Shown here one piece after another: positions 1,645 to 51,730 of a DNA stretch of 59,179 nucleotides. The notes beneath the pieces were generated by a model. That model saw only the letters and a list, made by a program, of their open reading frames with translations. It did not search any database and had not been told where the DNA came from. The position numbers and the translations under genes were made by a program. The DNA is from Holosporaceae bacterium (lineage in GTDB: Bacteria; Pseudomonadota; Alphaproteobacteria; UBA3830), in the NCBI GenBank assembly GCA_031282425.1, contig JAITDT010000024.1, positions 1 to 59,179 on the forward strand. Direction: 5' to 3'. Positions within the stretch are counted from its first letter, which is position 1. Every line of letters begins with the position of its first letter.

Positions 1645-1648
1645 TACA

Positions 1649-2386: not shown

Positions 2387-2401
2387 TAATTGCCTCCGGA
2401 T

Positions 2402-2875: not shown

Positions 2876-2903
2876 GATCTTTCTATAAATTTCTCGGCTA
2901 ATT

Positions 2904-3182: not shown

Positions 3183-3216
3183 ACAATCTCACCCAACAAT
3201 TATTATTACGATGCTA

Positions 3217-5996: not shown

Positions 5997-6412
5997 TGCG
6001 ATCTGGCGAGTTTGTCGACTCGTTCGTTATATTCACTTCCGGAATGGCCAGCTACCCACTTCCATGAAATCTGGTGCCGTTTAGATAATTCCTGCAATTT
6101 AATCCACAAATCCTTATTTTTTACGGCTTTTTTATCCGAAGTCGTCCAATTATTTTTTTCCCAGCCACTTATCCACTTGGTTATACCGTTTATTAGATAT
6201 TGACTGTCTGTGTATAATTCGACGATATGAATCTCCTTCAGCTCTTCCAGCGCCTTTATGGCCGATATCATTTCCATGCGATTATTGGTAGTGTCAGGTT
6301 CGCTGCCACAAAGTTCTTTTTCAATCGAATCTTGCAAAATTATCGCCCCCCATCCGCCCGGACCAGGATTGCCGCTGCAGGCTCCATCCGTATAAATTAC
6401 GACGCGCTTCAT
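5984..6412 (-). CDS. rnhA: ribonuclease HI
   Basis: [21 protein letters not shown] and TNNRMEM motifs; 142 aa. Confidence 0.95.
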
Positions 6413-7242
6413 ATTTCTATTTCTCCCGAAAATACCAAGAACGCTGGTCCCGACTGAAAAATGTTTCCGTCACTATCGCGGGAAATTATTAACGTCCCTC
6501 CCTTCTGTTTTACCAAAACATTCCTTGATAAAACAATATTATGAGCAAATGCAGCCGCGGCAGTCGCACAAGCGCCGCTGCCGCAGGCTTTCGTTAAACC
6601 AACCCCCCGTTCGTAGACTATCGTAGTAATTTCACTTTCGGATACGACATGTGCAAACGAAACATTTATTCTATTTTCGAATAAAGAATGATTTCCCAGT
6701 AAATCTCCTAAAGCGATTACCTCTTTTTCCTCCGGAAGACATTTGCAAAATAAAACCAAGTGCGGATTTCCAACAGAAATACATACCGCATGATAAACAC
6801 CAATGTCGGCAGGCAAACTTAATTCATCCATTAGCGCAGACGAACTTGCGACAGATTTTGATACTCCAGCATCTTGCAGTTTAAAACTTGGCCGCCCCAT
6901 TTTAATGCAAATTGTGCCATTTACAGAAATTGGATAATCTTTTTTTGCTGTTTTCAGCGTGCATTTTGAAAATCTATTACGTTTTTTCATTAATACTCCC
7001 AGACATCGTGCGGCATTTCCGCAGATTTCTGCTCCGCTTCCGTCGGAATTAAAAAACTCCGCATAAATATCATCATGTCGTAATTTGTACAAAACCGTCA
7101 GATCACAACCAACGCCATAATTTCTATTGCTGATATTAGAGAAAAAAAAATCATCGAAAAGCGGCTCTTTCGAAAATTGATTCATATCGATCATTATAAA
7201 ATCGTTGCCCAATGCCTGCATTTTATCGAATTTTATCAGCAT
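6409..7242 (-). CDS. dapF: diaminopimelate epimerase
   Basis: [13 protein letters not shown], both catalytic Cys motifs (CGNAARC and ACGSGACA), and VGNPH. Confidence 0.9.
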
Positions 7243-16371: not shown

Positions 16372-18006
16372 ATGGAGAATTGCTTGATACATAATGGATT
16401 AATCATGTCATTGTTTTTAGCTGGATGTATTTCACAAGAGGAGGCAAGAACTCCGCAGCAAAAAAATCTCAATTCCAAAGCTTTCGACGTCATGTCGTCT
16501 CCTCTGGAAGATTTTATTTCAGATTTGGATATAGACGAGTTTCTGGAAGATGAAATAGATAAAGAATCGCAGATAAATGAAAACTTTTATAAACCAATTT
16601 CAATTTCCGTCGCCGAAAATATGAAAATGCGGGAAGTTTTAACGCAAATGGCAGATTTGGCCGGAGTAAATATTTTTATCGTTCAGGAAGTGGAAGGAAG
16701 TATCTCTTTTTCGGCAAAAAATCGTCCATTTTTAGATATTTTGAAGGATATCTGCGCAGGCGCGGGTTTGAAGTATTCTATTAACGGAAACTCCGTAAAA
16801 ATCGAAATAGATACGCCCATGCTGAGAGTTTACAACGTACAATTCTTGAATATACAGAGAGACTCTGTAAGCGCCGTATCCGTTTCGACGGATATTTTTT
16901 CCAATCAATCTCTAGGAATTAAAGGAGACGTATCGACATCGTCTGGGCAGGCGAATGGGTCTAGCAGCACGGTTTCCGGAGTGACGAAAAATAATTTTTG
17001 GACCGAGTTGGAAGCTTCTTTGAAGACTATCATAGGCGAAGAAACCGATGGATCCTATCTTTCAATTCATCGTCAGGGAGGACTTGTGACAATTTACACG
17101 ACGCAAACCAAACACAACGAAGTGCAGAAATATTTGCGTCTACTGAAAGACACTACGGAATCGCAGGTACTAATCGAAGCAAAAATTCTGGAAGTTAATC
17201 TGAAGGACGAATACCGAAGCGGCGTTAATTGGAATATCGTTCGCAGCGGCGGCGCTAGGCTGGAGAAGAAATTTTCCAATGCCGAGGGTTTATTTTCTTT
17301 TGGAGTAGACAGAGCCAACTTAAGCGCTGTCGCCGGATTAATTGAAAGATTTGGCGCTGTGAAAACCCTATCCAGTCCTAGAATTACGGTTCTGAATAAT
17401 CAATCGGCTATATTGAAAGTTGCCCAAAACGAAGTTATCTACGTTCCTGAATTGCAGCGGCAATATGCGACAGTTTCGGATAATCGAAGTACGGATTTTC
17501 TTTCCACGACAATTCATACAATTCCAATTGGGCTAATAATATCGGTTTTACCGTCGGTGGATAAAAAAAACAATACGATTTTGCTCAATTTACGTCCGAC
17601 AATTTCTCGGATTGCCAGTTACAAGGAGGTCCCTTTTTTCTACCAAACCACGACTGCGAACGGTACTGCAACCAATGCGTTAGGCCAAAGCGCTCAATAT
17701 CACAGAATACCAATTGTCGATGTCCGAGAACTGGATTCCGTATTAAAACTAAATTCTGGACAGATAGTGGTTATGGGAGGACTAATGCAGGAATCATCCC
17801 TAAACAGTCGAGACGGATTGCCGGGTTTCAGCGCTGTCGACTTTTTGGCGGGAAGTAATGATAAATCGACGCATATCACGGAGCTGGTAATATTTTTAAA
17901 AGCTACAATTTTACGAAAAAAAAGTACAGCACATCATGCAGCGGACAAAAGAATGTATGATGCCTTCGCCAATGACCCAAGACCATTGAAGTTCAAAAAA
18001 TTATGA
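16372..18006 (+). CDS. secretin (type II secretion/type IV pilus family, MshL/PilQ-like), lipobox-containing
   Basis: ESQVLIEAKILEVNL, LSSPRITVLNNQSAILKV and IPIVDVRELDSVLKLNSGQIVVMGGL are secretin C-domain motifs. The N-terminus carries LAGC. Confidence 0.85.
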   Translation: MENCLIHNGLIMSLFLAGCISQEEARTPQQKNLNSKAFDVMSSPLEDFISDLDIDEFLEDEIDKESQINENFYKPISISVAENMKMREVLTQMADLAGVNIFIVQEVEGSISFSAKNRPFLDILKDICAGAGLKYSINGNSVKIEIDTPMLRVYNVQFLNIQRDSVSAVSVSTDIFSNQSLGIKGDVSTSSGQANGSSSTVSGVTKNNFWTELEASLKTIIGEETDGSYLSIHRQGGLVTIYTTQTKHNEVQKYLRLLKDTTESQVLIEAKILEVNLKDEYRSGVNWNIVRSGGARLEKKFSNAEGLFSFGVDRANLSAVAGLIERFGAVKTLSSPRITVLNNQSAILKVAQNEVIYVPELQRQYATVSDNRSTDFLSTTIHTIPIGLIISVLPSVDKKNNTILLNLRPTISRIASYKEVPFFYQTTTANGTATNALGQSAQYHRIPIVDVRELDSVLKLNSGQIVVMGGLMQESSLNSRDGLPGFSAVDFLAGSNDKSTHITELVIFLKATILRKKSTAHHAADKRMYDAFANDPRPLKFKKL

Positions 18007-18638
18007 AATTCTCCAATACAGACAAGGGATTTTCTCTGATAGAAGTGGCCATCGCTGTTGTGGTCATTAGCATAATCGCCAGCTTCGCACTGAAGGGAAG
18101 GGAACTGATCAATTCTACTAAACTGAAATCCGTCGCTCATCAGGTAAACGCTTTTAAGGTAGCGATTCAAGGTTTTGTTGATAAGTATGGAGCACTGCCG
18201 GGAGATTTTAGCGTAGCTCGAGAAATGATCAATAACTCTTTGCAAAATGGTTCTGGCAATGGCGTTATTGCGTCTGAGGAGGATGCAAAACGATTTTGGC
18301 AACATTTAGTGGCGGCGGACTCTTTAAATTTAGAACTTGTTAATGGATATCCACTAAGTAAAGTCGGCGGACATTATACAGTTTCTTCCAATATTCCAGA
18401 CCGATCTGGAACATGGATCATACTATGTAGCGGAGCGACCAACAATGAAAATTTTACGGGAATTTTAACGCCGGAGGAAGCTTATTTAATCGATAAAGAC
18501 AATGATAATGGCAATCCGTTAACGGGCGAAATTCAAGCTATAAAATCTTCAACGGCGAAGGAGGAATGTTTTATTGATTCCAGATATAATTTTAAAAATA
18601 AGAATAAAGATTGCGTACTTTTATTCAAAATTTGGTGA
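18003..18638 (+). CDS. prepilin-type N-terminal cleavage/methylation domain protein (pilin or pseudopilin)
   Basis: MKFSNTDKG|FSLIEVAIAVVVISIIA gives G-F-x-L-I-E with Glu at +5, followed by a hydrophobic helix. Confidence 0.85.
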   Translation: MKFSNTDKGFSLIEVAIAVVVISIIASFALKGRELINSTKLKSVAHQVNAFKVAIQGFVDKYGALPGDFSVAREMINNSLQNGSGNGVIASEEDAKRFWQHLVAADSLNLELVNGYPLSKVGGHYTVSSNIPDRSGTWIILCSGATNNENFTGILTPEEAYLIDKDNDNGNPLTGEIQAIKSSTAKEECFIDSRYNFKNKNKDCVLLFKIW

Positions 18639-19275
18639 GCGTGGATCGATTCTATTGGAAGTCGCCATCGCCATAGCTGTTTTGGGAGTAATCAGCGGGT
18701 TTTTTCTCACAAAAACAACCGTTCTCAATAAATCTATGCGACAACAAATCACTAAAAACAACATTGCTACCGTTTCTTTGGCGCTAGCGTCTTTTGTAGC
18801 AAATAACAACAGGCTACCACGCCCCTCATTGAATAACGACGGCATTGAATGTCAGGAATCCGAATCTTCTCTGGCAAATGCCATTGGACGAGTTCCGTTT
18901 TACACCATAGGAGTCACGGCGAAAACAGCGCTGGACGGCAGTGGAAAGCCATTGATTTACATAGTAGAGCCCACTCTTACCGGGAATTTCCCAAGTATCT
19001 ATGGTAATAGCATGAGCAGCTGTTTTTGCGATGGAAATTCCGCTTGCAATATTCTCATTGATAAAGTGGCACCATTAAAGTGGAATCCTATTGCGTTTGT
19101 TCTCGATACGGCAATGCCAACGATATCTGACGCGATTCATGTTACCATTTCTGCAGATACCCATTTGGTTTCGCGGGATATGCTCTTAATGTTATATTTA
19201 AAAAGCCAACCGTGTAGGGGAGGGGCAAACACTCCCCCAGAAATAAAACCTTCCGATCCACTCGATAGTATTTGA
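18574..19275 (+). CDS. second prepilin-like protein (divergent)
   Basis: ...FGERG|SILLEVAIAIAVLGVISGFF has Gly then Glu at +5 and a hydrophobic helix. The long leader and the 65-nt overlap with the upstream gene make the start uncertain. Confidence 0.55.
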   Translation: MIPDIILKIRIKIAYFYSKFGERGSILLEVAIAIAVLGVISGFFLTKTTVLNKSMRQQITKNNIATVSLALASFVANNNRLPRPSLNNDGIECQESESSLANAIGRVPFYTIGVTAKTALDGSGKPLIYIVEPTLTGNFPSIYGNSMSSCFCDGNSACNILIDKVAPLKWNPIAFVLDTAMPTISDAIHVTISADTHLVSRDMLLMLYLKSQPCRGGANTPPEIKPSDPLDSI

Positions 19276-33199: not shown

Positions 33200-34195
33200 T
33201 TAAACCTCTGGTTTTTTGAATACCCCGATACAACGAATGCCGAATGGATACGATAATACCTTGCCAAGCATTAATTCAATTTTAAGTATCATACGTACAA
33301 TAAATCCACTGGTCAGGGCTATTAGAGCTATGGATAAACGAGAATTACAAATGGATTGTTGTTTTGCTGCCGTAATATGCCAACGAGCTCTCGTCTTTTT
33401 CACGCACAAAAAAAATGGATATAGAAAAAATCCCAGATGAGAAAAATAAACTCGCTCTAGTCCGGATTCGTTTAAAAGTTTCAAAATTTGCGCGTTACTG
33501 TAACGCCTGTAATGGTGTAATTGAGCATCATAGGTGTCGAACAGTTTCTCTCCGTATGGGACTTCAAAGATAAAAACCCCTCCAGGCTTTAAAATCCGGT
33601 GTATTTCTTGCACAGCGCGACTGTGATCTTTTATATGCTCAAGAACGTTTAACGCTAAAACCGCGTCGTAGCTTTTGTCCGGTAAAGGGCAATCTATTAG
33701 ATCAAAACACAACAACGGAGTCGGAATATTTTCTTTTTTTAATTCTTTTGATAATTTACGCAGCGTTTTATTAATGATATCAGCCCCTACAATTTGTGCA
33801 TTAGGGAATAACCGTCGCATGCGACGCAATAAAACGCCACTAGAGCAGCCTATTTCTATAAGTCTCCCCCCCCCCCCTTGCTTAAAATTTGGACAATACT
33901 TCTTTATATTTGCAATTCCAGTAATAAAAGAAGCTTCATCGATGGGATGTCGACCGTTACTTATTTCTTCATGAAAATCCGTTAAATTGTCGTCCCATCC
34001 TGTTGGCGCATTAGGCATAGAATACGCTAAGACGCCTTCAAAAGACGGCTTCCCAACAAACTCTTTCCCATTCCATATTACATCTTCATGTTTGGTAGGA
34101 TGTGGAAATATTTGCTTGCTAGGTGAACACATCTTCATCTTCCACGACCTTATGCTATGCCTCCGACAGGCAATAATACTATATAATACAGGCAT
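33200..34195 (-). CDS. class I SAM-dependent methyltransferase containing an in-frame G12 tract
   Basis: GGGGRLIEIGCSSGVLL (motif I) and YDAVLALNVLEHI. The four Gly codons are a single G12 run. Start codon uncertain. Confidence 0.75.
   Translation of the reverse strand: MPVLYSIIACRRHSIRSWKMKMCSPSKQIFPHPTKHEDVIWNGKEFVGKPSFEGVLAYSMPNAPTGWDDNLTDFHEEISNGRHPIDEASFITGIANIKKYCPNFKQGGGGRLIEIGCSSGVLLRRMRRLFPNAQIVGADIINKTLRKLSKELKKENIPTPLLCFDLIDCPLPDKSYDAVLALNVLEHIKDHSRAVQEIHRILKPGGVFIFEVPYGEKLFDTYDAQLHHYRRYSNAQILKLLNESGLERVYFSHLGFFLYPFFLCVKKTRARWHITAAKQQSICNSRLSIALIALTSGFIVRMILKIELMLGKVLSYPFGIRCIGVFKKPEV
33866..33877. repeat. C12 homopolymer (G12 on the coding minus strand)
   Basis: Counted directly. 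It encodes GGGG immediately before SAM-binding motif I. Confidence 0.95.
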
Positions 34196-37165: not shown

Positions 37166-38431
37166 ATGCCTAAAAAGATGAAATTCGGCGCGGTATTGGC
37201 CATTGTGTTTGGAAGTCAGATTGGTTCTGGGATATTTGTATTGCCAGCCACTCTTGCGCCATTTGGGATATTTGGAGTTTTTGGATGGGGATTGGCAAGT
37301 TTGGGTGCTATGCTGTTGGCGTTTGTTTTTGCAGATTTATGCTCAAAATTTCCACAAACTGGAGGACCGCACGTCTATATACAAGAAGTTTTCGGAAGAA
37401 AAGTCGGGTTCTTCGTCGGATGGATCTATTGGCTAGTATCTTGGACCAGTACTTCCGTTGTGGTGATTGCTGCTATTGCCAGTTTAAGTACATTCATTGG
37501 AAACGACGTATCTTCTCATGTGTATTTATGTGGAGAAATTGTGCTGCTCTGCATAATTGCCGCCATCAATTGCAAAAGTGTTAATCTAGCCGGGAATGTG
37601 GGAATTCTTCTGACACTCCTTAAGTTCATTCCATTTATTCTCGTTCCCGCGGTGCTTTTTTGTAGTTTCGATGGAAGAAACATAGTTACGGCTCCGCAAT
37701 ACTCAAATTTTTCTGCCATGAAATTAGCCATGATTGCGGCAGTGGAATCGTTTTGGGGATTTATTGGAGTGGAATGTGCGACAGCTCCGGCCGGTGCAGT
37801 GGAAAATCCAGCCAAAACCATACCGCGAGCCATAATTATTGGAACATTGGGAGTAGCTGTGGTTTATTTTCTCAATAATCTATCTATTATGGGCGTAATT
37901 CCCGGCGACGCGTTAGCCTCTAGTAACGCTCCCTATGTGGATGCTATTAATAGCGTATTGGGAAAAAATATATCGATGATCATATCTGTTATGGCGTTTT
38001 TTTTGATGGCAGGCACCGCCAATACCTGGACGTTAGCGTCGGCGCAAATATCTTTTGGGTTGGCTCAGGACGGCTTACTTCCACCTCTTTTTGCAAAAAA
38101 GAACAGAAATCTAGCGCCGTATGCGAGCGTATTGATTAGTAGTTTAGGAATTATACCAATACTATTGCTTTCAAAAGATCAAAATTTGTCTGAACAAATA
38201 AATAATATCATTAATTTTTCGGTGGAAATTTTCCTGATAGTTTACGTCATATCCTGTTTAGCCTTTATAAAAATCAATAGGAACTCTGGCAAAATCTGGA
38301 AAACTGTTTTGGGAGTGGCGGCACTCTCGTTCTGTGCCGTTATGATGGTGAACTCATCGGTCCAATCAATGCTGGTGGCGCTATTATTCGCGGCTAGCGG
38401 TATTTGCGTGAGACCTTTCGTAAAACGGTGA
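37166..38431 (+). CDS. APC-superfamily amino acid/polyamine permease
   Basis: FGSQIGSGIFVLPATLA motif and about 12 TM helices; 421 aa. Confidence 0.85.
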   Translation: MPKKMKFGAVLAIVFGSQIGSGIFVLPATLAPFGIFGVFGWGLASLGAMLLAFVFADLCSKFPQTGGPHVYIQEVFGRKVGFFVGWIYWLVSWTSTSVVVIAAIASLSTFIGNDVSSHVYLCGEIVLLCIIAAINCKSVNLAGNVGILLTLLKFIPFILVPAVLFCSFDGRNIVTAPQYSNFSAMKLAMIAAVESFWGFIGVECATAPAGAVENPAKTIPRAIIIGTLGVAVVYFLNNLSIMGVIPGDALASSNAPYVDAINSVLGKNISMIISVMAFFLMAGTANTWTLASAQISFGLAQDGLLPPLFAKKNRNLAPYASVLISSLGIIPILLLSKDQNLSEQINNIINFSVEIFLIVYVISCLAFIKINRNSGKIWKTVLGVAALSFCAVMMVNSSVQSMLVALLFAASGICVRPFVKR

Positions 38432-38593
38432 TCGCAGTCATTAGAATCGTAGAATAACTGCATCCTGATTTGAAAATCATTAACTCTCTGTCAATATTTT
38501 TCTGAAATAATAGGAGGATGATTTTACATTGCAATATAAGGATTTGGTTTAATGCAATTTTCGATAGTAATTAATAACTTGATTGCAATAGGC

Positions 38594-38605
38594 GGGGGGG
38601 GGGGG
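38594..38605. repeat. G12 homopolymer
   Basis: Counted directly. It lies inside a short ATG-initiated leader (ATG 38552) upstream of the Flp-like gene. Confidence 0.95.
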
Positions 38606-38838
38606 TAAACCTTCTAGAAGAGAGGCGTCTTTCATGTTCTGATTATTTGTCAATTTATCAAAATAGTTTCAATTATTACTTATTTCGCAGTCTCCAAAGT
38701 TTTTTTGATTTTTTCTCAAAAGTAATTTTCTTTTGGCATTGCTTTCAAATTTATTCTCCGATGTTTTCCTCTTCTTCAAAAAGTATTTCTTTTGCGACAA
38801 CATCTGGAAAAAAATCTTTTTTCAATGAGGTATCTCTG

Positions 38839-39837
38839 ATGTCACCGGAGAAAAATCACCATTCCCGCCGTTTGTTGACAAAAAAGGGGTCTAGAGGGGC
38901 GATATCGGAGTATATTCTTCTGGCAAGCCTGGTTGTGATGGCAGCCATTTATGGACTAGGATCTGTGGGCTCATCGATTCAAAAACAATTTCAGACGCTG
39001 CTCGATGATTTCGGAAAATCTGCGTCTTCTTCTATAGAATCATTGTCGCCGGAAAAACAGAAACAGATGTACGAGACGATGCGAACGGCCGTAATGAATG
39101 CAGGAATAGAGAATGAAGAAGATGCAGATCAAATTGCTTCGGTCGCTGCGAATACAGCTACAGAATCCTATTTGGAAGCTATAAATTCAGAATATGCTAA
39201 ATCTCTAAGTCCCGAAGAAGCCGAAATTTATGCTACAAGAATTGCCGCTTGGGAGGCTTATAAATCTGTGTATGAGCAAAATGGAACTGCCGAACAGAGA
39301 GCAATGGCGCACGCCTCAGCGAGAGCTGCATATAAAGCGATGATAGAAACCATGATTGGTAGAGAATCGACGGAGGCGGAATTAGTAGGCAACATAGCCT
39401 ATGCTTCTGCGCTGGAGACGGCATCCACAGTTCTAGCAGCGCTGAAAGACTCTCAGAGGAACACAACGCTGGATGTAAAGGCTGCTGCTGCCACCGTAGC
39501 GGAGCAGTTTACAAGAGAGGCAAATATTATGTATGAGGAAATAAATAAAGATAGAATGGGCTCGTCACCTTGGATTATGACTTATTCTTCAGGGCCATTT
39601 TCATCACTGTATAGTTTACTTCAGTCCATAGTCGCAGACGCAAACATGGACTGGGAAAAAATGCCACCCAATCCTGAACTACTGAGAAAAATAGACCGGG
39701 CGGCGGCAGCATCGGTGCTCTATGAAAATAGCTATTATGCATATGATGTAGCATATGATGCTTACGGCTTCCGAAGTGAGCTAGCCAAATGGGCTGAACA
39801 GGTGCGGAACGGCACGCTAATAAGCGATGAACGCTAG
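38839..39837 (+). CDS. large protein with Flp-type (type IVc) prepilin-like N-terminus; minimal CDS
   Basis: ATG 38839 is preceded by GAGG. MSPEKNHHSRRLLTKKGSRG|AISEYILLASLVVMAAIYGLG resembles the Flp leader-G|xxxxEY-hydrophobic helix. A ~310-aa Ala-rich, apparently helical domain follows. The same frame is open upstream to 38578, so the ORF-track start of 38647 is possible. Confidence 0.6.
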   Translation: MSPEKNHHSRRLLTKKGSRGAISEYILLASLVVMAAIYGLGSVGSSIQKQFQTLLDDFGKSASSSIESLSPEKQKQMYETMRTAVMNAGIENEEDADQIASVAANTATESYLEAINSEYAKSLSPEEAEIYATRIAAWEAYKSVYEQNGTAEQRAMAHASARAAYKAMIETMIGRESTEAELVGNIAYASALETASTVLAALKDSQRNTTLDVKAAAATVAEQFTREANIMYEEINKDRMGSSPWIMTYSSGPFSSLYSLLQSIVADANMDWEKMPPNPELLRKIDRAAAASVLYENSYYAYDVAYDAYGFRSELAKWAEQVRNGTLISDER

Positions 39838-39949: not shown

Positions 39950-40819
39950 CTATGCCAATCTTTTTATCAATGAACTAAACCCATGCGATTTTAAAAAATC
40001 TGCAGCCTTTAAGAAATTGTAGAGTATCTTCAGATCATCAACATTTATATCCAGCGGAATGTCTTTTTCAAGGGTAACTAACTTAAGAGAGATATCAAAT
40101 TGCGCCCTCTGATTTTTAAGATATTCTTTAATTCTATTGGGCTTAACGTCGTCGATATTTTGGTACAGCGCTTCTGGAGTTTTAAATTCTTTAACAAGCT
40201 TTGCCGCCGTTTTTGGACCGATACCGCCAACGCCAGGAATATTATCAGAAGCGTCGCCCATTAAAGCCTGCAGAAAAATCATCTGATGCGGTAAAACGTC
40301 ATATTTTTCCCGCACTTCGTCTGCTTTTATAAGCTTTGATTTTATCGGATCGAATAGAGAAACATTGTCTGATACTAATTGCATTAGATCTTTGTCCGAC
40401 GATATGATTTTTACATCGTATCCCTGCTCCGACAGTTTCGCCGAGTATGTGGCGATTATATCGTCGGCTTCAAATCCTTTTTTACTGATTGTTGAAATGC
40501 CGAAAGCCTCGCAAGCGTCGCGAAACATGGGTATTTGTACCTTTAATTCTTCCGGAATTGCCTGTCGGTTGCTTTTATATTCAGCATAGATTTGAGAACG
40601 GAAAGTGTCCCTGCCGCTATCCAATACTACGCAAAATGGATTGGCGATGAATGCTTCAGCTAAAATCTTATGTCTTTTCAATAGAGAAATTAGCATGGAG
40701 CAGAATCCAAATACTGCGCCAACGGGATGTCCATCTTTGTTGATCAGTGGCGGGGAAGCATAATAGGCTCTATATATAAAACCGGAGCCGTCTACTAATA
40801 TCGCGGAAGTTTTAGCCAT
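39950..40819 (-). CDS. stand-alone 5'-3' exonuclease (Pol I N-terminal domain homologue)
   Basis: MAKTSAILVDGSGFIYRAYYA, then GFEADDIIAT and MGDASDNIPGVGGIGPKTA (H3TH). Start placed at ATG 40819 (289 aa). Confidence 0.88.
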   Translation of the reverse strand: MAKTSAILVDGSGFIYRAYYASPPLINKDGHPVGAVFGFCSMLISLLKRHKILAEAFIANPFCVVLDSGRDTFRSQIYAEYKSNRQAIPEELKVQIPMFRDACEAFGISTISKKGFEADDIIATYSAKLSEQGYDVKIISSDKDLMQLVSDNVSLFDPIKSKLIKADEVREKYDVLPHQMIFLQALMGDASDNIPGVGGIGPKTAAKLVKEFKTPEALYQNIDDVKPNRIKEYLKNQRAQFDISLKLVTLEKDIPLDINVDDLKILYNFLKAADFLKSHGFSSLIKRLA

Positions 40820-40823
40820 AAAT

Positions 40824-41270
40824 TTATTGTAAAGTTTGATTCTTAGCTTCCTTTTGCTGTTGATATAGATCGGCAAAATTAACTGGGGCGAGATATAATG
40901 GTGGAAACCCACCCTCACTAACGGTACTGGCGATGATACTTCGGGCAAAAGGAAACAACAACCGCGGGCATTCGACGTATAAAATAGCATCCATGACGTC
41001 GTCGGGGAATTCTTTAACGATAAACTCTCCGACATAATTTAATTCTAATAGAAACAGCGGCTTATGGAGTTTTGCATCAATCTTCGCCATCAAGCTAACA
41101 TGAAATATATCAGACTCTTTTCCTTTCTCAATATTCACTTTTAATTGTACGTCAATCTGAGGCTGCTTATCAGAAGCTTCTGATTCTTTAGCCAAACAGA
41201 TATTTTCAAATGATAAATCCTTTATATATTGCGCTACTACTCCAAAGGTCTGACTGTTTTCTCCTGCCAT
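40824..41270 (-). CDS. secB: protein-export chaperone SecB
   Basis: FGVVAQYIKDLSFEN...ECPRLLFPFARSIIASTVSEGGFPPLYLAPVNF is the SecB signature. ATG 41270 is preceded by GGAG (148 aa). Confidence 0.88.
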   Translation of the reverse strand: MAGENSQTFGVVAQYIKDLSFENICLAKESEASDKQPQIDVQLKVNIEKGKESDIFHVSLMAKIDAKLHKPLFLLELNYVGEFIVKEFPDDVMDAILYVECPRLLFPFARSIIASTVSEGGFPPLYLAPVNFADLYQQQKEAKNQTLQ

Positions 41271-41367
41271 GAATACTCCAACTCGTTTTGACTGGTTGAT
41301 GATACAGAATACGATGCGGCATCGCAAGTTAGAAACTGCGGCTGAAGCTACCAAACGATTATAGAAG

Positions 41368-41395
41368 CACCCACCACCACCCCACCCCACCCCCC
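41368..41395. repeat. C-rich block CACCCACCACCACCCCACCCCACCCCCC (G-runs on the minus strand)
   Basis: Read directly. The minus strand is GGGGGGTGGGGTGGGGTGGTGGTGGGTG, i.e. four G-runs of at least 3 with short loops. Confidence 0.9.
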
Positions 41396-41490
41396 AATTA
41401 ACCTCTTCTTCACTTTTTTCTGTCATAATATTCCCAAACAAAATGGACTTAAGATGCGTCTTTTTGCAAAAATTAGTGACTTCCTGACGC

Positions 41491-42435
41491 ATGGGGGGGG
41501 GGGGCAATCACCTCTGGCAGAGGCGGTTCTGGTGCTTAGATTGTCAAGATAATGGCAAGAATCTCGGCAAAATTGCTTTTTTAAGAAAAACCGGTCTCGG
41601 AAATCTTGACAAATTTTTCTCTTTTGAAAAAGCCTGCAATCATTTCAAAAGGCCTCTTTTTCGTTCCATAAAGTTCTTTTTTCGGCATGGAAATTTCCAG
41701 CTGCAGAAAAAATCCTCCGGCGCGACGCTTGTTGAAAATGCGCTCGTCGTTGCCTTGGTGATTATTGCCGCTGTCGGTGGTTTGAGTTACATCGGACTAG
41801 CCGTACAGGATCGTCTTGACATATTGGCGGGAGTTACAAATTCTGGAAACGAGGCTAATCAGAAAGCAAAAACGGCATGGGACACATTCTTTGAAGGATT
41901 GCAAAGTATTTTAGATGACGGGGACGGAATAGAGAATCTTCTAAAAGAAGGGAAAGATCTAAAAAAAATACTGGGAGAGAAATTTGATGTATTATTTGAG
42001 GACTTGGCTAAAAATGTAGATCTTGATCAGGCCTGGCCAGAAGAATGGACGCGAATCTCATGTTATGAATCCGCAATCCATGTGAAATATGCCAAGGAAC
42101 CACCAAATGCGCCTCAGACACATCCATCTGAATTTCCTCCCAGCAACGAATATGATGAATACATGACACAAATAGAAGAAGCATATAATAACAACGAGAC
42201 TGCCTTTGATAAAGTAGCAGCTCTTGTAATGATAAAACTTGCTATTGAAGCAGAACCGGATGATAGTCCTTTATTTTACGAATATCACACCACTGATAGT
42301 AATGGAAATGAGTATTATATTGGCCGAGAGTTCAGCATTCTCGGATCATATTTGGATTGTTACATCTACAAAGCATATCATCCAGAGTGGGAGATATCTG
42401 ATCCAGAGCCGTATCCACCAACAACAGTTAAGTAA
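41491..42435 (+). CDS. large protein with Flp/TadE-type prepilin-like segment; start codon fused to a G12 tract
   Basis: ...QLQKKSSG|ATLVENALVVALVIIAAVGGLSYIG has Gly, then Glu at +5, then a hydrophobic helix. An acidic ~235-aa domain follows. The only in-frame ATG/GTG/TTG upstream of this segment is ATG 41491. Confidence 0.55.
   Translation: MGGGGNHLWQRRFWCLDCQDNGKNLGKIAFLRKTGLGNLDKFFSFEKACNHFKRPLFRSIKFFFRHGNFQLQKKSSGATLVENALVVALVIIAAVGGLSYIGLAVQDRLDILAGVTNSGNEANQKAKTAWDTFFEGLQSILDDGDGIENLLKEGKDLKKILGEKFDVLFEDLAKNVDLDQAWPEEWTRISCYESAIHVKYAKEPPNAPQTHPSEFPPSNEYDEYMTQIEEAYNNNETAFDKVAALVMIKLAIEAEPDDSPLFYEYHTTDSNGNEYYIGREFSILGSYLDCYIYKAYHPEWEISDPEPYPPTTVK
41493..41504. repeat. G12 homopolymer beginning at the G of ATG 41491
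   Basis: Counted directly: ATGGGGGGGGGGGGCAAT. Confidence 0.95.
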
Positions 42436-46434: not shown

Positions 46435-48495
46435 ATGGTAGAAAGCACGCAGCATGTATTAGATAGAGTCCGTTCTCCTCGAGTACAAATCACCTATGAC
46501 GTGGAGATAGGGAATGCTATAGTTATGAAGGAGTTACCCTTTGTTATAGGAGCGCTAATCGATTTATCAGGCATGCCGGTGGATCCGTTGCCTCCCATTA
46601 AACTTAGAAAATTTGTGGAAGTGGATAGGGACAATCTTCCGGACTTCATGATATCAATCAATCCACGCTTAGCTATACAGGTAAAAGACACGCTGGAAGA
46701 TGGATCAGAGGATCTGAATGCAGAGTTGTTTTTCAAGCATATGGATGACTTCGGTCCCATTAGTATTGCTCGGCAGGTGCCCAAATTAAATAAAATATAT
46801 TCTTCACGCATAAAATTAAACGATTTGGTGGTAAAGCTGGAAGGGAATGATCCTCTTCAGCAGTGCGTAAAAGATATCGTTGCAGATGCCGGATTAAAAG
46901 CCGCTTTAAAAGCCCAAATTGACGCTGTTTTAAAGGCTAACAAACAGTCAATTACGGCGGACTTCGCCACTGCCCAAACGCCGAATGGCGTCGCCCCTCC
47001 GCCGTCAGGAGGCGGAGCTACCGCTGCCGGCGCGCCTCCTGCCGCTGACGCTCCAAAAATGAATCGAGAAATCCTGAAAGAAATGTTTGTGGGCGGTAAA
47101 CTTGCGCGAGATCCATCGGCGGAAGTATATGCGTGCAGCATACTACTGGAGCTACTTCTTAAAATTGAGGAAACGAAGGTAACTGTGATGAAAAATCCTC
47201 TTGCCTTTGTGGAAAAGGCGGTGGCAGACATCGACGCTATACTGAGCGCTCAAATTAACGAGATCCTACATAATCAGGCGTTTCAGGAACTCGAGGGTAC
47301 ATGGCGGGCGTTGCACTATTTAATAATGAATACAGAAACCAGCACTCAATTAAAAATAAGAGTGATGAACGCGACGAAAAAAGATTTGCTGGACGATCTG
47401 GAAAACGCCGTCGAGTTTGATCAAAGTCAGCTATTTAAAAAAGTATATGAAGAAGAGTACGGTACTTTTGGTGGCCATCCTTATTCCTGCCTCATTGGCG
47501 GATACGAATTTACGCGTCATCCGCAAGATATATTACTACTGGAGAAAATTTCCAATGTTGCTGCTGCTGCGCACGCTCCATTTATCGCCGCGGCTCATCC
47601 GCGCATGTTCGATATGGAAAGTTTCACGCATCTTGCCGGACCGCGTGATATATCAAAAATCTTTGAAAGTACGGAAATGATCAAGTGGAGGTCTTTCCGG
47701 GATAGCGAAGATTCCAGATACGCAGCGCTGGTGCTGCCGCGGGTACTTATGAGATTGCCCTATGGGCCGGATACATTACCCGTCGATGGTATGAGTTATG
47801 TGGAATCCATAGATGGCAATGATAATTCGCAATTTTGCTGGGGAAATGCAGCCTTTGTTTTGGCTCAACGAATTGGTTATGCGGTTTCGCTGTATAAATG
47901 GCCCGCCGCCATTCGCGGCGTTGAGGGTGGTGGACTGGTGGAGGAACTGCCGGCTTACACATTTAAAACCACCGACGGCGATATCGCGCTAAAATGTCCA
48001 ACAGAAATAGCCATTACCGATCGTCGGGAAAAAGAATTGACAGATATGGGGTTTTTGGCAATTTGCCATAGTAAAGGAACTGACTTCGCCGCCTTTTTCG
48101 GCGGGCAAACTACCCAGAAACCCAAGGTCTATAATACAGATGATGCCAATGCGAACGCTGCACTGAGCGCACGGCTACCGTACTTGCTAGCAGCGTCCAG
48201 ATTTGCTCATTACATAAAGGCGATCATGCGCGATAAAATTGGGGCTTTTCTGACGAAGGACAATGTCTCTTCCTATCTTAATAATTGGATAGCCAATTAT
48301 GTTCTATTAAACGATTCTGCCAGCCAGGATCTCAAGGCTAAATTTCCGCTACGGGAAGCTCGAATAGACGTATTCGATATTCCGGGTAAGCCGGGATCCT
48401 ATAAGGCGACTATATTTTTGAGGCCGCACTTCCAATTGGAAGAGCTGACGGCGTCCATAAGATTGGTGGCCAGTTTGCCGCCACCGGCCAAGTAA
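46435..48495 (+). CDS. tssBC: type VI secretion contractile sheath, TssB (VipA) and TssC (VipB) fused in one polypeptide
   Basis: aa 1-~170 carry TssB blocks: RVQITYDVE, ELPFVIGALIDLSG, RKFVEVDRDNLPDF, ELFFKHMDDFGPISIARQVPKL. Then a P/A/G linker GVAPPPSGGGATAAGAPPAADAP. Then TssC blocks: ILHNQAFQELEGTWRALHYL, YGTFGGHPYSCLIGGYEF, AAAAHAPFIAAAHP, LVLPRVLMRLPYG, LRPHFQLEELTASIRLV. Confidence 0.85.
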   Translation: MVESTQHVLDRVRSPRVQITYDVEIGNAIVMKELPFVIGALIDLSGMPVDPLPPIKLRKFVEVDRDNLPDFMISINPRLAIQVKDTLEDGSEDLNAELFFKHMDDFGPISIARQVPKLNKIYSSRIKLNDLVVKLEGNDPLQQCVKDIVADAGLKAALKAQIDAVLKANKQSITADFATAQTPNGVAPPPSGGGATAAGAPPAADAPKMNREILKEMFVGGKLARDPSAEVYACSILLELLLKIEETKVTVMKNPLAFVEKAVADIDAILSAQINEILHNQAFQELEGTWRALHYLIMNTETSTQLKIRVMNATKKDLLDDLENAVEFDQSQLFKKVYEEEYGTFGGHPYSCLIGGYEFTRHPQDILLLEKISNVAAAAHAPFIAAAHPRMFDMESFTHLAGPRDISKIFESTEMIKWRSFRDSEDSRYAALVLPRVLMRLPYGPDTLPVDGMSYVESIDGNDNSQFCWGNAAFVLAQRIGYAVSLYKWPAAIRGVEGGGLVEELPAYTFKTTDGDIALKCPTEIAITDRREKELTDMGFLAICHSKGTDFAAFFGGQTTQKPKVYNTDDANANAALSARLPYLLAASRFAHYIKAIMRDKIGAFLTKDNVSSYLNNWIANYVLLNDSASQDLKAKFPLREARIDVFDIPGKPGSYKATIFLRPHFQLEELTASIRLVASLPPPAK

Positions 48496-48547
48496 TCGGC
48501 GGTCTTTGGGTGAATGTTTTAAAACGTGGTTTTGTTGGAGGTGTTAG

Positions 48548-49138
48548 ATGAGCAGCAATAATAGAGGATTTGAAATGTTTAGCCAAATTCAAAGGCCTGA
48601 CATGCTTGGCAAAAGCGATGAAAGCCTTAATGCACCGAGTGGAGCCTCAAAAACTCCCCAATGGGTTATTGGAACGGATGATGATACCGGTATTTTTGAT
48701 AGCGATATGGACGGCGATTTTGCCAAAATGGCTGTGGTCCTCTGGATAGTATTCGGAGGCGCTCGATTAGCAACATACGACTCCTCAGGACAGCAATCCG
48801 GAGACGGAAAAATAGTCAATCGCGACGTTGTCGTATGTATGAAATTTGGAGACTACGGTCCGCCTCTTCAGCAATGGATGTTTTCTGGGAAAAAAATTAC
48901 CACTATTACCATAAAAAGGGTAATTAGCGTAAACGGCACGCTCGTGGTGATCCAGGAATTAACCTACGGAACGTGCGTCATAAAGACCTACGAGCAAAAT
49001 GGCGACATTATTACGTTTACATTTACTTTTGTCACCTATACCGACATGAGTCTAGCCTACGATCATGACGGAACGCTAGTCGGACGTGTTGGAATGTCAT
49101 ATGACGCTGCTAAAATTACGGTAGCCGCTGTATCTTAA
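48548..49138 (+). CDS. hcp: divergent Hcp (TssD)-like tube protein with N-terminal extension
   Basis: GGAGG lies 9 nt upstream. The C-terminal ~130 aa (VVVCMKFGDYGPPLQQWMFSGKKITTITIKRV...LTYGTCVIKTYEQNGD..ITFTFTFVTYTDMSLAYDHDGTLVG) follow the Hcp pattern: K-x-x-D-x-x-SP-x-L-like block, then G-x-x-(I/L) and alternating beta-strands. It sits directly downstream of the sheath gene. Confidence 0.55.
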   Translation: MSSNNRGFEMFSQIQRPDMLGKSDESLNAPSGASKTPQWVIGTDDDTGIFDSDMDGDFAKMAVVLWIVFGGARLATYDSSGQQSGDGKIVNRDVVVCMKFGDYGPPLQQWMFSGKKITTITIKRVISVNGTLVVIQELTYGTCVIKTYEQNGDIITFTFTFVTYTDMSLAYDHDGTLVGRVGMSYDAAKITVAAVS

Positions 49139-49595: not shown

Positions 49596-49623
49596 TTGAC
49601 AATTTTTTTTTTTTTGATACATT
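49596..49623 (+). promoter_or_regulatory. sigma70-type promoter candidate whose spacer is a T13 tract
   Basis: TTGACA (49596-49601), a 16-nt spacer A-T13-GA (T13 = 49603-49615), then TACATT (49618-49623), 35 nt upstream of ATG 49659. Confidence 0.55.
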
Positions 49624-49658
49624 GAAAATAGTTTTTATCATCAAATATGGAGGTTAAT

Positions 49659-50186
49659 ATGAAAAAAACTATTGGAACCGTTAGAGCAATTGTGTTCGGC
49701 AGTATGTTGACAGCGGCGGTTAGCTGCGAGGGAATGCAGATAGAGAATGTTGCAGGCTTGATTTATGATGGAAATGAGCATGACCTAACCCCTCTTTGGA
49801 AAGATTACTTGTCGCAACATTTTGATGCTACACACCGAGCTTATCTTATGCATAATGGTAAGGATTGCTCCCTGTTGTCTCATGCGGCATGTGCTGGAAA
49901 ACCACTGCTGCTCGCAACTATGGGACATCTCGATACTCTTACGCTAGAAGATTTGGGAAATTTATTTTCTGCACTTAAACCAACGGCGTATGCTTCTCAT
50001 GATCAATATACAGCATTGGAGCAAATAGTGCAGGCTATGATTGGGACTTTTGGTATAGATCGAGTACGTCAATATCGTGATGCTCGAGGGCGCTCTTTTG
50101 ACCAAATCGTTGCGGAAGGAACGGCTGGTGATTTTAATGCGCAAAGGAGCATATTTCCTAAGTTGCGTGAGTGGGGTCTTTATTAA
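49659..50186 (+). CDS. hypothetical exported protein (possible lipoprotein; weakly ankyrin-like)
   Basis: GGAGG lies 6 nt upstream of ATG 49659. MKKTIGTVRAIVFGSMLTAAVSC is signal-like. NGKDCSLLSHAACAGKPLLLATMG loosely resembles an ankyrin repeat. Confidence 0.5.
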   Translation: MKKTIGTVRAIVFGSMLTAAVSCEGMQIENVAGLIYDGNEHDLTPLWKDYLSQHFDATHRAYLMHNGKDCSLLSHAACAGKPLLLATMGHLDTLTLEDLGNLFSALKPTAYASHDQYTALEQIVQAMIGTFGIDRVRQYRDARGRSFDQIVAEGTAGDFNAQRSIFPKLREWGLY

Positions 50187-50209
50187 CGCTTAGTGAAAGG
50201 CTTCGGCTT

Positions 50210-50413
50210 CTACAAGCAGATAATTTTGGTCCTACGGAAATATATTTCCTCAGGAGAATGGGTTGCGGCGCGTAAGGCGGAATATGGCTTTAAGATTTCC
50301 TCGCAGTGCGCCGTATTTCTTATGGATAGGAGCGCGTACTCTGAACAAGTGGGATAAAACTTGCATCGGGATTTTAAATAACAGGATAATGTTTTTTGAT
50401 AAATGCGAATCAA
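50210..50413 (-). pseudogene. yidD: yidD-like (membrane protein insertion efficiency factor), N-terminally truncated and C-terminally divergent
   Basis: IRIYQKTLS...CKFYPTCSEYAL matches the YidD core. Only a TTG start is available, the usual N-terminal residues are missing, an IS200 relic abuts it, and the usual C-terminal Cys/His/Pro motif reads ALRAATHSPEE. Confidence 0.45.
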
Positions 50414-50439
50414 TTACTACCGTCTGAGTATCTGAAGAT

Positions 50440-50640
50440 AGGCCGATTAAGGATGAATCCTTCTTTTCGTTCCATGTTTTGAAAGCAGAATCCTCATCAT
50501 TTTGATCATCAATGTATTGTTTAACTACATCCTCTGTAACTGCTCCAACCGTACTGCAAAAGTAGCCTTTAGCCCAAAGATGATATCCCCAATATTTTTA
50601 TAAGTTCGGAAAATTCTCACAGCATCGCGCTGTACGTCCT
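50440..50640 (-). pseudogene. IS200/IS605-family tnpA C-terminal relic
   Basis: Minus strand reads ...ENFPNL*KYWGYHLWAKGYFCSTVGAVTEDVVKQYIDDQ, the conserved C-terminal block of IS200 TnpA, interrupted by a stop. Confidence 0.7.
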
Positions 50641-50898
50641 TTTAAGTACTAAGCAATTTTTGCAGACGATAGGTAACTGTGAGCTTTTAGGACGCTAAAG
50701 CGTAAGGTTTATGCCCGACATATGGAAAATAAACGCACAACCATTTTATTAAAAGTCTTCGCGCTAGTACCATGTCGTAAAAAATGCCTGAAAGTAGAAA
50801 AAACATAATAAAAACAATCATATATTGACATGCCCAAAAAGAAAGCAAACAAATATAACTATATGAAAACTTGCGCTTTTTGTATTAGTCAGAAATAG

Positions 50899-51150
50899 TT
50901 ATCCACAAAGATATCCACAATTTTTGTTGATAACTCTTTCAACGATAGTTACGATTGCCATCGTAGTTAATAAAACAACGAGGCAATTGTCGTGTTTTGG
51001 CAGTACAGCCAATGATAGAAAGCATGATACAATATCGTTATGATAATACGTTCTAACATTTAGCAAAGAATCGAGTTTTAGCTTTAACGACCTAATTTTT
51101 CTTTTCAAGCAACTCCAGAAATATTCGATTGGATTTAATTCAGCAAATAG
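50899..51150 (-). pseudogene. IS630-family transposase C-terminal relic
   Basis: Minus strand reads LFAELNPIEYFWSCLKRKIRSLK..., the same NPIE-x-x-W-x-x-x-K motif as at 1-108. The upstream part of the gene is absent. Confidence 0.6.
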
Positions 51151-51273
51151 GGAGGCTGATCAGATGGCATTCGGTTTTGGCTTCCCAGAGTTCTTTTCTT
51201 TCGTGGATCTACTCTTTTTTTGCATTGTCATATTTTTAACGCTAATTTGGTTGCTAATCCTGAAGTAGGGGAT

Positions 51274-51287
51274 GGGGGGGGGGGGGG
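51274..51287. repeat. G14 homopolymer beginning at the G of an ATG (51272)
   Basis: Counted directly: GATGGGGGGGGGGGGGGACT. All three plus-strand frames stop within 20 codons. Confidence 0.95.
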
Positions 51288-51313
51288 ACTGTTAGTTGAT
51301 GTACTGTCGTCCG

Positions 51314-51730
51314 CTAATACTTGATTTTTCTGAGAATAGTCGATGAGATTTTATCATCTTTGTCTTTACTACCGCGGGATGACCCGAACTCGAAGCTGTA
51401 AGCGTCCTTGAGACAAGCTCCGAAAATCCCGGAAACTGTGGAGATGATGCCCACAACTTCGCCGGGAAGATTGCCGCTATAGGAGGTTAGCGTTAATATG
51501 CAGAAAATTAATCCCAGCGCCGCTCCAACCACCATGATATTCAACCTTCTGTTGCGACCGCAGGCGTTTATTACGGTCACCTTGTTGTCGTCATTTCCGC
51601 TATTTGCATTTTCGAGATCTGGAGTTTTTGGGTTCACTGGCGTCGCAGCGTCGATATGATTGTCGATGGAACGTTGAGTTTCGTTTTTCATTGTTTTTAC
51701 TGGATCTAAAATTATTTTTTCTATGGTCAT
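51314..51730 (-). CDS. small 2-TM membrane protein (holin-like or immunity-like by position)
   Basis: 138 aa with a hydrophilic N-terminus, two hydrophobic helices (IMVVGAALGLIFCILTL and VVGIISTVSGIFGACL) and a charged tail. Its ATG overlaps the upstream stop (ATGA). Confidence 0.6.
   Translation of the reverse strand: MTIEKIILDPVKTMKNETQRSIDNHIDAATPVNPKTPDLENANSGNDDNKVTVINACGRNRRLNIMVVGAALGLIFCILTLTSYSGNLPGEVVGIISTVSGIFGACLKDAYSFEFGSSRGSKDKDDKISSTILRKIKY

Follow-up and report, generated by a model that had tools for sequence, protein, structure and literature searches.

A gene that can be read only from a start codon fused to a run of G residues raises the questions of which start codon it normally uses and of what becomes of its product when the run gains or loses a base. 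Such a gene, the target of this analysis, occupies positions 41454-42435 of the forward strand of the 59,179-nucleotide (nt) contig JAITDT010000024.1 of a Holosporaceae bacterium (assembly GCA_031282425.1); the whole of this stretch is called the window below. An original prediction, made from the letters of the window, regarded the product as a large Flp/TadE-type prepilin-like protein controlled by a tract of 12 G (G12), and pointed to a second gene of the same kind at 38.6 kb, here termed the sister gene. The analysis indicates that these genes probably belong to a Holosporaceae-specific family of large pilin-like proteins, the expression of which would be set by slipped-strand mispairing at a 5′ intragenic poly-G tract (Table 1).

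Open Reading Frame, G12 Tract, and Candidate Start Codons

The open reading frame (ORF) of 314 amino acids (aa) predicted at 41491-42435 on the forward strand is present, and contains FQLQKKSSG/ATLVENALVVALVIIAAVGGLSYIG (the slash marks the predicted cleavage site), in which the Gly at position -1 is encoded by codon 41719-41721, Glu occupies position +5 of the following ATLVEN, and a hydrophobic helix follows. As had been stated, no in-frame ATG, GTG, or TTG lies between ATG 41491 and the cleavage motif; the only non-standard starts of translation table 11 in this interval are ATT 41572, ATA 41668, and CTG 41701. ATG 41491 is therefore the sole canonical start in the body frame at the assembled G12. 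The arrangement had been described as an ATG followed by G12. A 12-G run does stand beside this ATG, but it includes the G of the ATG itself, so that AT plus G12 is to be read as ATG followed by G11.

Runs of at least 12 G/C occur at five sites in the window (938, 33866, 38594, 41493, and 51274), the G+C content of which is 40.8%; the number expected in 59 kb from 100 dinucleotide-preserving shuffles is 0.00. With its 12 G, the tract at 41493 exceeds the length of about 8 G/C or more at which a homopolymer was counted as hypermutable. Simulation of tract lengths agrees with the earlier claim that the tract determines the frame, and yields three phases. At G11 or G14, ATG 41454 (MRLFAKISDFLTH) joins the body frame, giving 326 or 327 aa; at G9, G12, or G15, ATG 41491 is in the body frame; and at G10 or G13, neither ATG is. 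In the assembled G12 sequence, the frame of ATG 41454 is off and stops 19 codons past the tract. It had further been proposed that any change of +1 or -1 abolishes translation. This holds for +1, but is wrong for -1, because G11 restores ATG 41454, which is the conserved start as described below. The possibility that the poly-G serves as a ribosome-binding site for a nearby downstream start was rejected, as none of the tracts has a start codon in the 12 nt that follow it.

Start Codon and Tract in Related Genes

A profile search of 1.84 billion representative proteins returned 14 relatives, and DNA comparisons used more distant family members (L083-L086). Only one close homologue of the target was found, MDR2646300.1, which is annotated as 'Flp family type IVb pilin, partial [Holosporaceae bacterium]'. 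In the nearest homologue, P0003, the sequence is ...IFRLISYFLHNLPAGAGGGGGGGDPLWQRRFWCLDCQDS..., with ..IFRLISYFLHN..G7.. in frame, and the peptide before the tract joins the rest of the protein; the poly-G tract therefore lies at the same place in P0003, and the pre-tract peptide is in frame there too. P0054 begins MRLFAKISDFLTRGGGDPLWQRRF and remains in frame to QLRKKSSG/ATLVES; its N-terminus (MRLFAKISDFLTR-GGG-DPLWQRRF) matches the window ATG-41454 peptide at 12 of 13 residues. In L084, a JGI metagenome contig, the sequence of the N-terminal peptide (N-peptide) is identical at 38 of 39 nt (97%) and is followed by G20, and the body, like that of the window, is in frame solely with a tract-overlapping ATG. 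L083 has a GGAG ribosome-binding site and an ATG start, and its tract is replaced by GGT GGT GGT GGG GGC, with five Gly codons kept. Interruptions on every third base that retain Gly are to be expected if the tract is read as codons, and the L083 allele looks like a locked-on form, in which the 'on' state is fixed.

At the homologous position the tract is thus G20 in L084, G10 in L086, about seven Gly codons in P0003, and three Gly in P0054, and independent assemblies from NCBI, JGI, ENA, and Logan place it at the homologous codon. Both in-frame and out-of-frame states are present among alleles, orthologues, and paralogues. ATG 41491 itself is not conserved, because its His codon (CAT) is replaced by Arg or Gln in P0048, P0050, and P0054. 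On the evidence of P0054, P0003, and L084, ATG 41454, 13 codons ahead of the tract, is the conserved start of the family, which upholds the suggestion that a G11 tract would bring this upstream ATG into use. The view that the only in-frame start is fused to the tract therefore describes the assembled G12 correctly, but not the design of the gene, since ATG 41491 varies. A tract-overlapping start likewise occurs in the G20 allele of L084 and in gene B of L004 (ATG-T-G9), and a TTG equivalent is found in L082 and L087.

The L084 contig carries three tracts within 2 kb (G16 at 4870-4885, C14 at 6352-6365, and G20 at 6550-6569), and its G20 gene is split by a later frameshift into P0049 and P0055.

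Translation of the Leader

The leader read from ATG 41454 comprises about 89 aa, with an isoelectric point (pI) of 10.6, 13 Phe, and 17 Lys plus Arg in 89 residues. Its 72 codons between tract and motif contain no stop in the ORF frame and three stops in each of the other two frames; the probability of such an open leader by chance, estimated from shuffles, is P = 0.13 for the target gene and 0.02 for the sister gene. In the ORF frame, the ratio of nonsynonymous to synonymous differences (pN/pS) in the leader is 0.34 against L084 (Fisher p = 0.003) and 0.33 against L083 (p = 0.0009), compared with 2.45 (L084) and 1.30 (L083) for frame +1, and 0.55 (L084) and 0.52 (L083) for frame +2, none of which is significant. 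In addition, every leader indel among homologues consists of whole codons. A 14-codon unit varies from zero to three copies among homologues: it is missing from L083 and L084, present in P0003, and found as an extra copy in P0048. This unit is visible in the protein alignment alone, as Tandem Repeats Finder found no tandem repeat in the leader when run within the window. These observations support the conclusion that the leader is under purifying selection specific to the ORF frame and is probably translated. Conserved RNA structure does not explain leader conservation, because the folding z-score is +0.33 and a search of Rfam gave no match at E values up to 1. A zinc finger (CxxC...CxH) in the leader was considered and ruled out, since the C-x-H part is not kept in P0003.

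Pilin-Like Features of the Mature Part

The acidic C-terminal part of about 235 aa described earlier corresponds to a mature part of 237 aa with a pI of 4.3 and 43 Asp plus Glu, which is intact and has strong coding potential. Pfam Flp_Fap (PF04964) is the only or best match of every family member (9.8-17.3 bits for the window protein, 13.9-20.9 bits for homologues), whereas the TadE profile (PF07811) gave no match to the window protein; TadE-like relatives (L004 gene A, P0012, and P0013) score 19.8-20.7 bits, against a TadE cut-off of 22.9. The profile of the N-terminal module aligns with mature Caulobacter PilA (8u1k), starting from PilA residue 1 at the predicted cleavage point (E = 4.7). 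Of the Flp processing motif G/XXXXEY, the Gly (-1) and the Glu (+5) do not vary among members, whereas Asn or Ser takes the place of Tyr at +6; the sister gene reads G/AISEY. The mature part is far above the size range of Flp pilins (about 45-80 aa). Its AlphaFold2 model has a mean predicted local distance difference test (pLDDT) score of 43, with values of 60-80 for residues 213-309 only, and a Foldseek search of the PDB found nothing below E = 1. Structure prediction, which had been suggested as a check on the target, was thus poor and gave no structural match, and no functional inference is drawn from it.

The lineage has genes for type IV filaments. At 16372-19275 of the window, a gene for an MshL-like secretin is followed by that for a GFxxxE prepilin, MKFSNTDKG/FSLIEV (TIGR02532, 30 bits), and by another pseudopilin-like gene, with neither an ATPase nor a platform gene next to them. 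L002, another Holosporaceae metagenome-assembled genome (MAG), encodes PilB/GspE-, PilC/GspF-, and PilM-like proteins. Motif scans of about 293 kb of Holosporaceae DNA for the Tad machinery or an A24 peptidase found only the PilB/GspE-type ATPase cluster of L002, and no tad genes were present in the window or in any fetched neighborhood. An A24 prepilin peptidase is nevertheless likely to exist in the lineage, because of the window prepilin and MshL-like secretin and the PilB/GspE- and PilC/GspF-like genes of L002. The assignment of the target as an Flp/TadE-type prepilin accordingly holds in part: Flp_Fap is its best Pfam match, yet the score is sub-threshold and TadE gives none, so that the expected profile match was not obtained. 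The protein is here likened to the TadG/Kil 'tip' pilins, in that it would work as a modular minor pilin of the prepilin type, and is not filed as a member of the Flp family.

Exchange of Cargo Domains and the Wider Family

Between the window and L084, the upstream DNA, N-peptide, leader, and helix are 81-97% identical, whereas the cargo is unalignable at the DNA level. P0050, P0057, P0058, and P0059 combine a leader and helix of the 41-kb type with a cargo homologous to that of the sister gene (BLASTP E = 1e-14); the C-terminal cargo of the 41-kb type is common to P0003, P0051, P0053, P0055, and P0056. Cargo domains are, to judge from these alignments, swapped among relatives, and the proposal that two different cargos share one N-terminal design is borne out by P0050 and P0057 in particular.

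A scan of the fetched Holosporaceae loci for G/xxxxE helices revealed two paralogues in L004. Gene A has GAGGG-6 nt-ATG, then MFRYYKLIKTAVVRLSSVSACKTN, then G13, and is in frame, whereas gene B shares these 24 codons, continues with G9, and is out of frame, with its body starting at ATG-T-G9. A protein search seeded with gene A found 43 TadE/TadG-like proteins, many of which have the N-terminus MTGGGKDLKN, MNWFAKKVFDKGGGKDLKN, or MKWFAKKVVDRGGGNDLKN. In the DNA of three TadE-like members, a strong ribosome-binding site is followed by about 11 codons of N-peptide and by G9: L081 has AAGGAG-8 nt-ATG, MNWFAKKVFDK, and G9 in frame, and L082 and L087/L088 have MKWFAKKVFD and G9 with TAA directly after it, the body being in frame with a TTG abutting the tract. 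The N-peptide pattern M-x-[WL]-F-A-K is common to the TadE-like family and the window gene. As tract phases differ between genomes and between paralogues, the tract bears the comparative signature of a contingency locus. Every out-of-phase allele with available DNA (the window, L084, L004 gene B, L082, and L087/L088) exceeds its 'on' tract length by exactly one G, which brings an ATG or TTG at the tract into frame; this pattern may mean that a second start is in use, or may be an ascertainment bias.

P0030 (L082, 2404-3741) has a leader of about 215 aa with the internal repeat LLDRCTEKNT.SS.TLVNEKLRF.AY, and leader length therefore varies about four-fold within the family.

Favored Explanation and Its Alternatives

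In the explanation considered probable, translation would normally start at ATG 41454 and pass through 13 codons, the G tract as Gly codons, and the basic leader of about 72 codons, to reach the Flp-like G/ATLVEN hydrophobic helix and the acidic domain of about 205 aa. A tract longer or shorter by one G would shift the frame of ATG 41454, with G11 and G14 on, G12 off for that start, and G10 and G13 fully off. A change in tract length would leave the mature protein unaltered, following the logic of Neisseria pilC, because the tract and the leader lie upstream of the predicted prepilin-type cleavage site. The basic leader would be cytoplasmic, the helix would insert with its N-terminus in and C-terminus out, a prepilin peptidase would cleave after Gly, and a type IV filament would display or deliver the acidic cargo. 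The target gene, the sister gene, and the TadE-like paralogues would form a repertoire of independently switching, exchangeable surface modules. A more far-reaching version, put forward tentatively and held to be doubtful, makes the 5′ part a portable switch cassette consisting of a ribosome-binding site and an ATG, some 12 codons of N-peptide (M-x-[WL]-F-A-K...), the poly-G run, and the long basic leader that contains the 14-codon unit. Fused to Flp-like or TadE-like helices and exchangeable cargos, each copy would flip independently and act as a three-level dimmer, yielding combinatorial tips or effectors that face a protist host, and the leader, long and conserved, would itself serve some purpose before cleavage, for example cytoplasmic sorting or regulation.

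Several observations weigh against the favored explanation. The ribosome-binding site ahead of ATG 41454 is weak, being merely GGA. The 89-aa leader is far longer than known Flp leaders (about 10-30 aa) and lacks a codon-usage signal: its 3-periodic Markov score, from a model trained on window genes, is -1.6, against +53 for the mature part and values above 0 for 97% of true gene pieces. The low score is attributed to the odd composition of the leader, and the discrepancy remains genuine. All Flp and TadE scores are under the curated cut-offs (32.2 for Flp_Fap), an NCBIfam scan of the family proteins gave no match, and the window contains neither a prepilin peptidase nor a tad gene. Two ENA assemblies of one TadE-like gene both have G9. 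An internal GAGG and ATG 38839 in the sister gene would give a normal 20-aa leader without the tract. In L084, G16 and a truncated family leader precede an unrelated secreted-protein gene that has its own ribosome-binding site and ATG; because of this position, the leader/tract module is hinted to act also at the DNA or transcript level.

The last two of these points, and the missing codon-usage signal, are equally in keeping with an action of the tract on transcription, in or next to a promoter, with the protein starting near the motif at a non-canonical codon. ATA 41668 would then give MKFFFRHGNFQLQKKSSG, a typical Flp-like leader, and Ile-Lys-Phe at this position is conserved in homologues; a -35-like hexamer (TTGACA/TTGACG/CTGACG) abuts the 5′ side of the tract in several members, and a T13 run lies in a promoter spacer elsewhere in the window. 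However, no -10 element occurs at a workable distance 3′ of the tract, a promoter-consensus scan of the interval from tract to motif found no promoter-like site, and ATA 41668 has no ribosome-binding site, whereas strong ribosome-binding sites and an ATG precede the tract by 11-24 codons in L081, L082, L087, and L004. The frame-specific selection and in-frame indels of the leader, and the codon-periodic interruptions in L083, also speak for translation through the tract, and a transcriptional role is judged quite unlikely. Deliberate use of both starts in successive phases, ATG 41454 in one and ATG 41491 in the next, would make the gene a three-state dimmer expressed in two of three phases. 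The one-G excess of each out-of-phase allele fits this idea, as does the TAA directly after the tract in L082 and L087, 12 nt from the TTG, which would permit termination-reinitiation; in the window, however, the main frame stops too far past the tract for such coupling. ATG 41491, moreover, has no ribosome-binding site of its own, its His codon varies as noted above, and database ORFs favor long open frames, so that the one-longer pattern is perhaps an ascertainment effect. A designed double start is thus unlikely. A canonical leader of 12 aa (MEISSCRKKSSG) would result from ATG 41687 if A6 slipped to A7. This out-of-frame ATG and the A6 run are present as predicted, A7 would join the ATG to the body, and the run differs in L086 (A5, together with another frameshift). 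Nevertheless, the ATG is absent from P0003 (WRG) and from L083 and L084 (RRR/GRR), L085 has both the ATG and A7 and its frames are still not joined, A6 is short for a slippage site, and the upstream frame is under selection; this short-leader start is dismissed as extremely improbable.

Two further alternatives concern the protein rather than its start. The hydrophobic segment might be an uncleaved signal anchor, making the product a bitopic protein of the inner membrane, the 89-aa tail of which would face the cytoplasm and the acidic domain the periplasm; the switch would still apply. The sub-threshold Flp_Fap scores and the absence of tad genes from the fetched neighborhoods are consistent with this, as are the Asn or Ser, not Tyr, at +6, the leader at least three times the length of known Flp leaders, and its conservation, which equals or exceeds that of the cargo (72% versus 44% aa identity) and would be odd for a discarded peptide. 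On the other hand, Gly -1 and Glu +5 are invariant and the segment is in register with mature PilA, TadE-like relatives of the same 5′ design score near the TadE cut-off, and the lineage has type IV filament genes and classical prepilins, so that an anchor is regarded as possible without being preferred to a cleaved prepilin. The gene might also be a decaying pseudogene, or its tract an artefact of assembly or sequencing (poly-G from two-color chemistry). The assembly is of metagenome type, homopolymers of at least 12 are error-prone, the L086 and L084 copies carry extra frameshifts, and the leader of the sister gene has no detectable homologue. Yet the tract recurs at the homologous codon in assemblies from four sources and lies inside a 59-kb contig, the mature part of 237 codons is undisrupted and scores strongly as coding, and tracts that are not maintained gain interruptions, as in L083 and at 41366-41395; decay or artefact is considered very improbable.

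Sister Gene, Neighboring Genes, and Other Tracts in the Window

The sister gene has the same layout as the target, in line with the shared kind of switch that had been proposed, with ATG 38552, a G12 tract, and a frame that is open as far as G/AISEY. At the assembled G12, TAA follows directly after the tract in the ATG-38552 frame, which would be in frame at G10 or G13. Its cargo is homologous to that of P0057, and its own leader has no database homologue. The two window genes share no upstream DNA beyond the tract itself and therefore do not represent a recent duplication. A short palindrome lies within a few bases 3′ of both tracts (41505-41530, CCTCTGgCAGAGG; 38606-38630, CTTCTAGAAG), and that of the target encodes LWQRRF, which is conserved in the 41-kb family.

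As noted previously, secB and the exonuclease gene (39950-41270) are located between the two switch genes. The window exonuclease is 59-75% identical to its counterparts in Holosporaceae MAGs; tblastn of the target and the sister gene against 80 loci flanking secB or the exonuclease gene found nothing, and both switch genes are therefore not at this position in other Holosporaceae MAGs. An amino-acid permease gene stands beside a poly-G pilin-like gene in four genomes (window 37166-38431; L081 8499-9779; L082 303-1574; L004 13642-14835), the pilin-like genes being of different families. Upstream of the target, the candidate promoter is on its own not above shuffle background in the consensus scan. 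The same intergenic region between secB and the target holds an interrupted C run (CACCCACCACCACCCCACCCCACCCCCC) at 41366-41395, which is G-quadruplex-like on the minus strand; it may be a decayed tract, because L084 holds an intact C14 about 90 nt from the homologous spot.

TABLE 1. Positions of the switch genes, their parts, and further features of the window.
Feature	Position	Strand	Details
Family start codon and 13-codon N-peptide MRLFAKISDFLTH	41454-41492	+	GGA 6 nt upstream; conserved in relatives
ATG overlapping the tract	41491-41493	+	cATGg: His codon CAT plus first G of the run
G12 homopolymer	41493-41504	+	Within 5′ coding region, read as poly-Gly
Leader-coding region, 72 codons, NHLWQRRFWCLDCQDN...FQLQKKSSG	41505-41721	+	Basic, Phe-rich; ends at Gly of the predicted cleavage site
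14-codon (42-nt) copy-number-variable segment AFLRKTGLGNLDKF	41575-41616	+	From protein alignment of homologues
ATG 41687 and A6 run 41707-41712	41687-41712	+	Judged a non-functional start
Mature part: Flp-like helix ATLVENALVVALVIIAAVGGLSYIGLAV, then acidic domain of about 205 aa	41722-42435	+	Stop codon 42433-42435
Candidate promoter TTGACT-16-TACGAT	41288-41315	+	Consensus scan; between secB and the target, about 140 nt upstream of ATG 41454
Sister gene	38552-39837	+	AGGA and ATG 38552, MQFSIVINNLIAI, G12 38594-38605, open leader, G/AISEY helix, Ala/Glu-rich cargo
5′-3′ exonuclease gene	39950-40822	-	Pfam 5_3_exonuc_N 6e-53; housekeeping, outside the system
secB	40824-41270	-	Pfam SecB 3.5e-41; housekeeping, outside the system
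G12 run in frame (GGGG) inside S-adenosylmethionine (SAM)-dependent methyltransferase gene	33866-33877	-	ORF 33200-34195; just before SAM-binding motif
G14 run	938-951		Between 4′-phosphopantetheinyl transferase gene (961-1644, -) and signal-peptide ORF (327-854, -)
T13 run	49603-49615		In spacer of promoter-like TTGACA-16-TACATT (with TG), upstream of signal-peptide ORF 49647-50186
G14 run with ATG before it	51274-51287		Gene-poor stretch 50186-51314

The methyltransferase gene with its G12 ends a glycan-biosynthesis cluster of about 10 kb (22.6-33.2 kb), and looks like a phase-variable gene for surface-glycan modification; methyltransferase genes of this kind are typical contingency genes. 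The run at 938-951 is poly-C on the strand of the signal-peptide ORF and lies 84 nt before its ATG. The flanking genes (961-3831) have syntenic counterparts in L087, in which a poly-G TadE-like gene takes the corresponding spot. The T13 run is a possible switch acting through promoter-spacer length. The stretch around the second G14 contains a remnant of an IS630-type transposase (NPIEYFWS, minus strand), and no intact gene is linked to that tract. At 46435-49138, one ORF of 686 aa fuses the sheath proteins TssB (VipA) and TssC (VipB) of the type VI secretion system (T6SS), followed by a weak Hcp-like ORF; the fusion agrees with the non-standard T6SS reported for Holosporales.

Significance and Relation to Known Systems

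Repeat-tract phase variation typifies pathogens that are adapted to a host, but does not figure in present views of the Holosporales. If the favored explanation is correct, switching pilin-like proteins with swapped cargos point to a variable surface or filament repertoire in protist symbionts and provide concrete candidates for host-contact factors. A long conserved leader before a prepilin-type motif is unusual and, if cleaved, would widen the known range of prepilin-peptidase substrates. In addition, gene callers mis-annotate the family, with starts such as 'MTGGGK...' or 'MGGGG...', 'partial' pilins, and truncated ORFs, because the tract phase in the assembly decides the called start. Most likely, this is a switch of known type, here extended to a new lineage and a new protein family; it had not been described before in this group of bacteria. 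In a 2025 review of the Holosporales, the words pili, pilus, Tad, Flp, and phase variation are all absent, and host interaction is attributed mainly to the T6SS.

Several known systems resemble parts of this arrangement. Flp/Tad (type IVc) pilins such as Caulobacter PilA and A. actinomycetemcomitans Flp1 are processed by TadV. The target shares with them Gly -1, Glu +5, a hydrophobic helix of about 25 residues, Flp_Fap as best match, and the register with PilA; it differs in its sub-cut-off scores, Asn rather than Tyr at +6, a mature part of 237 aa versus about 45-60, a leader of about 89 aa versus about 10-30, and the lack of a nearby tad locus. TadE, TadF, TadG, and the Kil tips likewise have pilin-like N-terminal helices with modular C-terminal domains. 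In the Kil Tad pilus of Myxococcus, interchangeable 'Tips' encoded by paralogous sets serve as alternative functional ends of one filament (PMC12075869). Repeat-tract control is not reported for the Kil tips in that paper, whereas the Holosporaceae genes each have their own hypermutable tract, as predicted from their DNA. PilB and PilC of Streptococcus sanguinis are modular type IV pilins (cited in PMC12075869) that also fuse a pilin N-terminus to a large module, but these are type IVa pilins with lectin or von Willebrand factor A (vWA) modules, whereas the target cargo has no detectable fold match. The poly-G/C contingency genes of Campylobacter jejuni and Neisseria include lgt and genes for surface-glycan modification (PMC8355987, PMC2192423). 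The window resembles these systems in having several G/C runs of at least 9 per region in or before surface-structure genes, and in the methyltransferase G12 beside the glycan cluster; taxon and lifestyle differ.

The closest precedent for the predicted switch of the target appears to be pilC of Neisseria gonorrhoeae, in which poly-G in the signal-peptide coding region switches a pilus-associated protein (Jonsson et al., 1991, per PMC5354566). Common to both are a G run in a removable N-terminal leader, switching by frameshift, and a mature protein that is independent of tract length. PilC, however, is a Sec-dependent tip adhesin with a normal signal peptide, whereas the target has a leader of about 89 aa, a class III motif, and a tract placed after a conserved 13-codon peptide, and belongs to an alphaproteobacterial symbiont in which switching is predicted.

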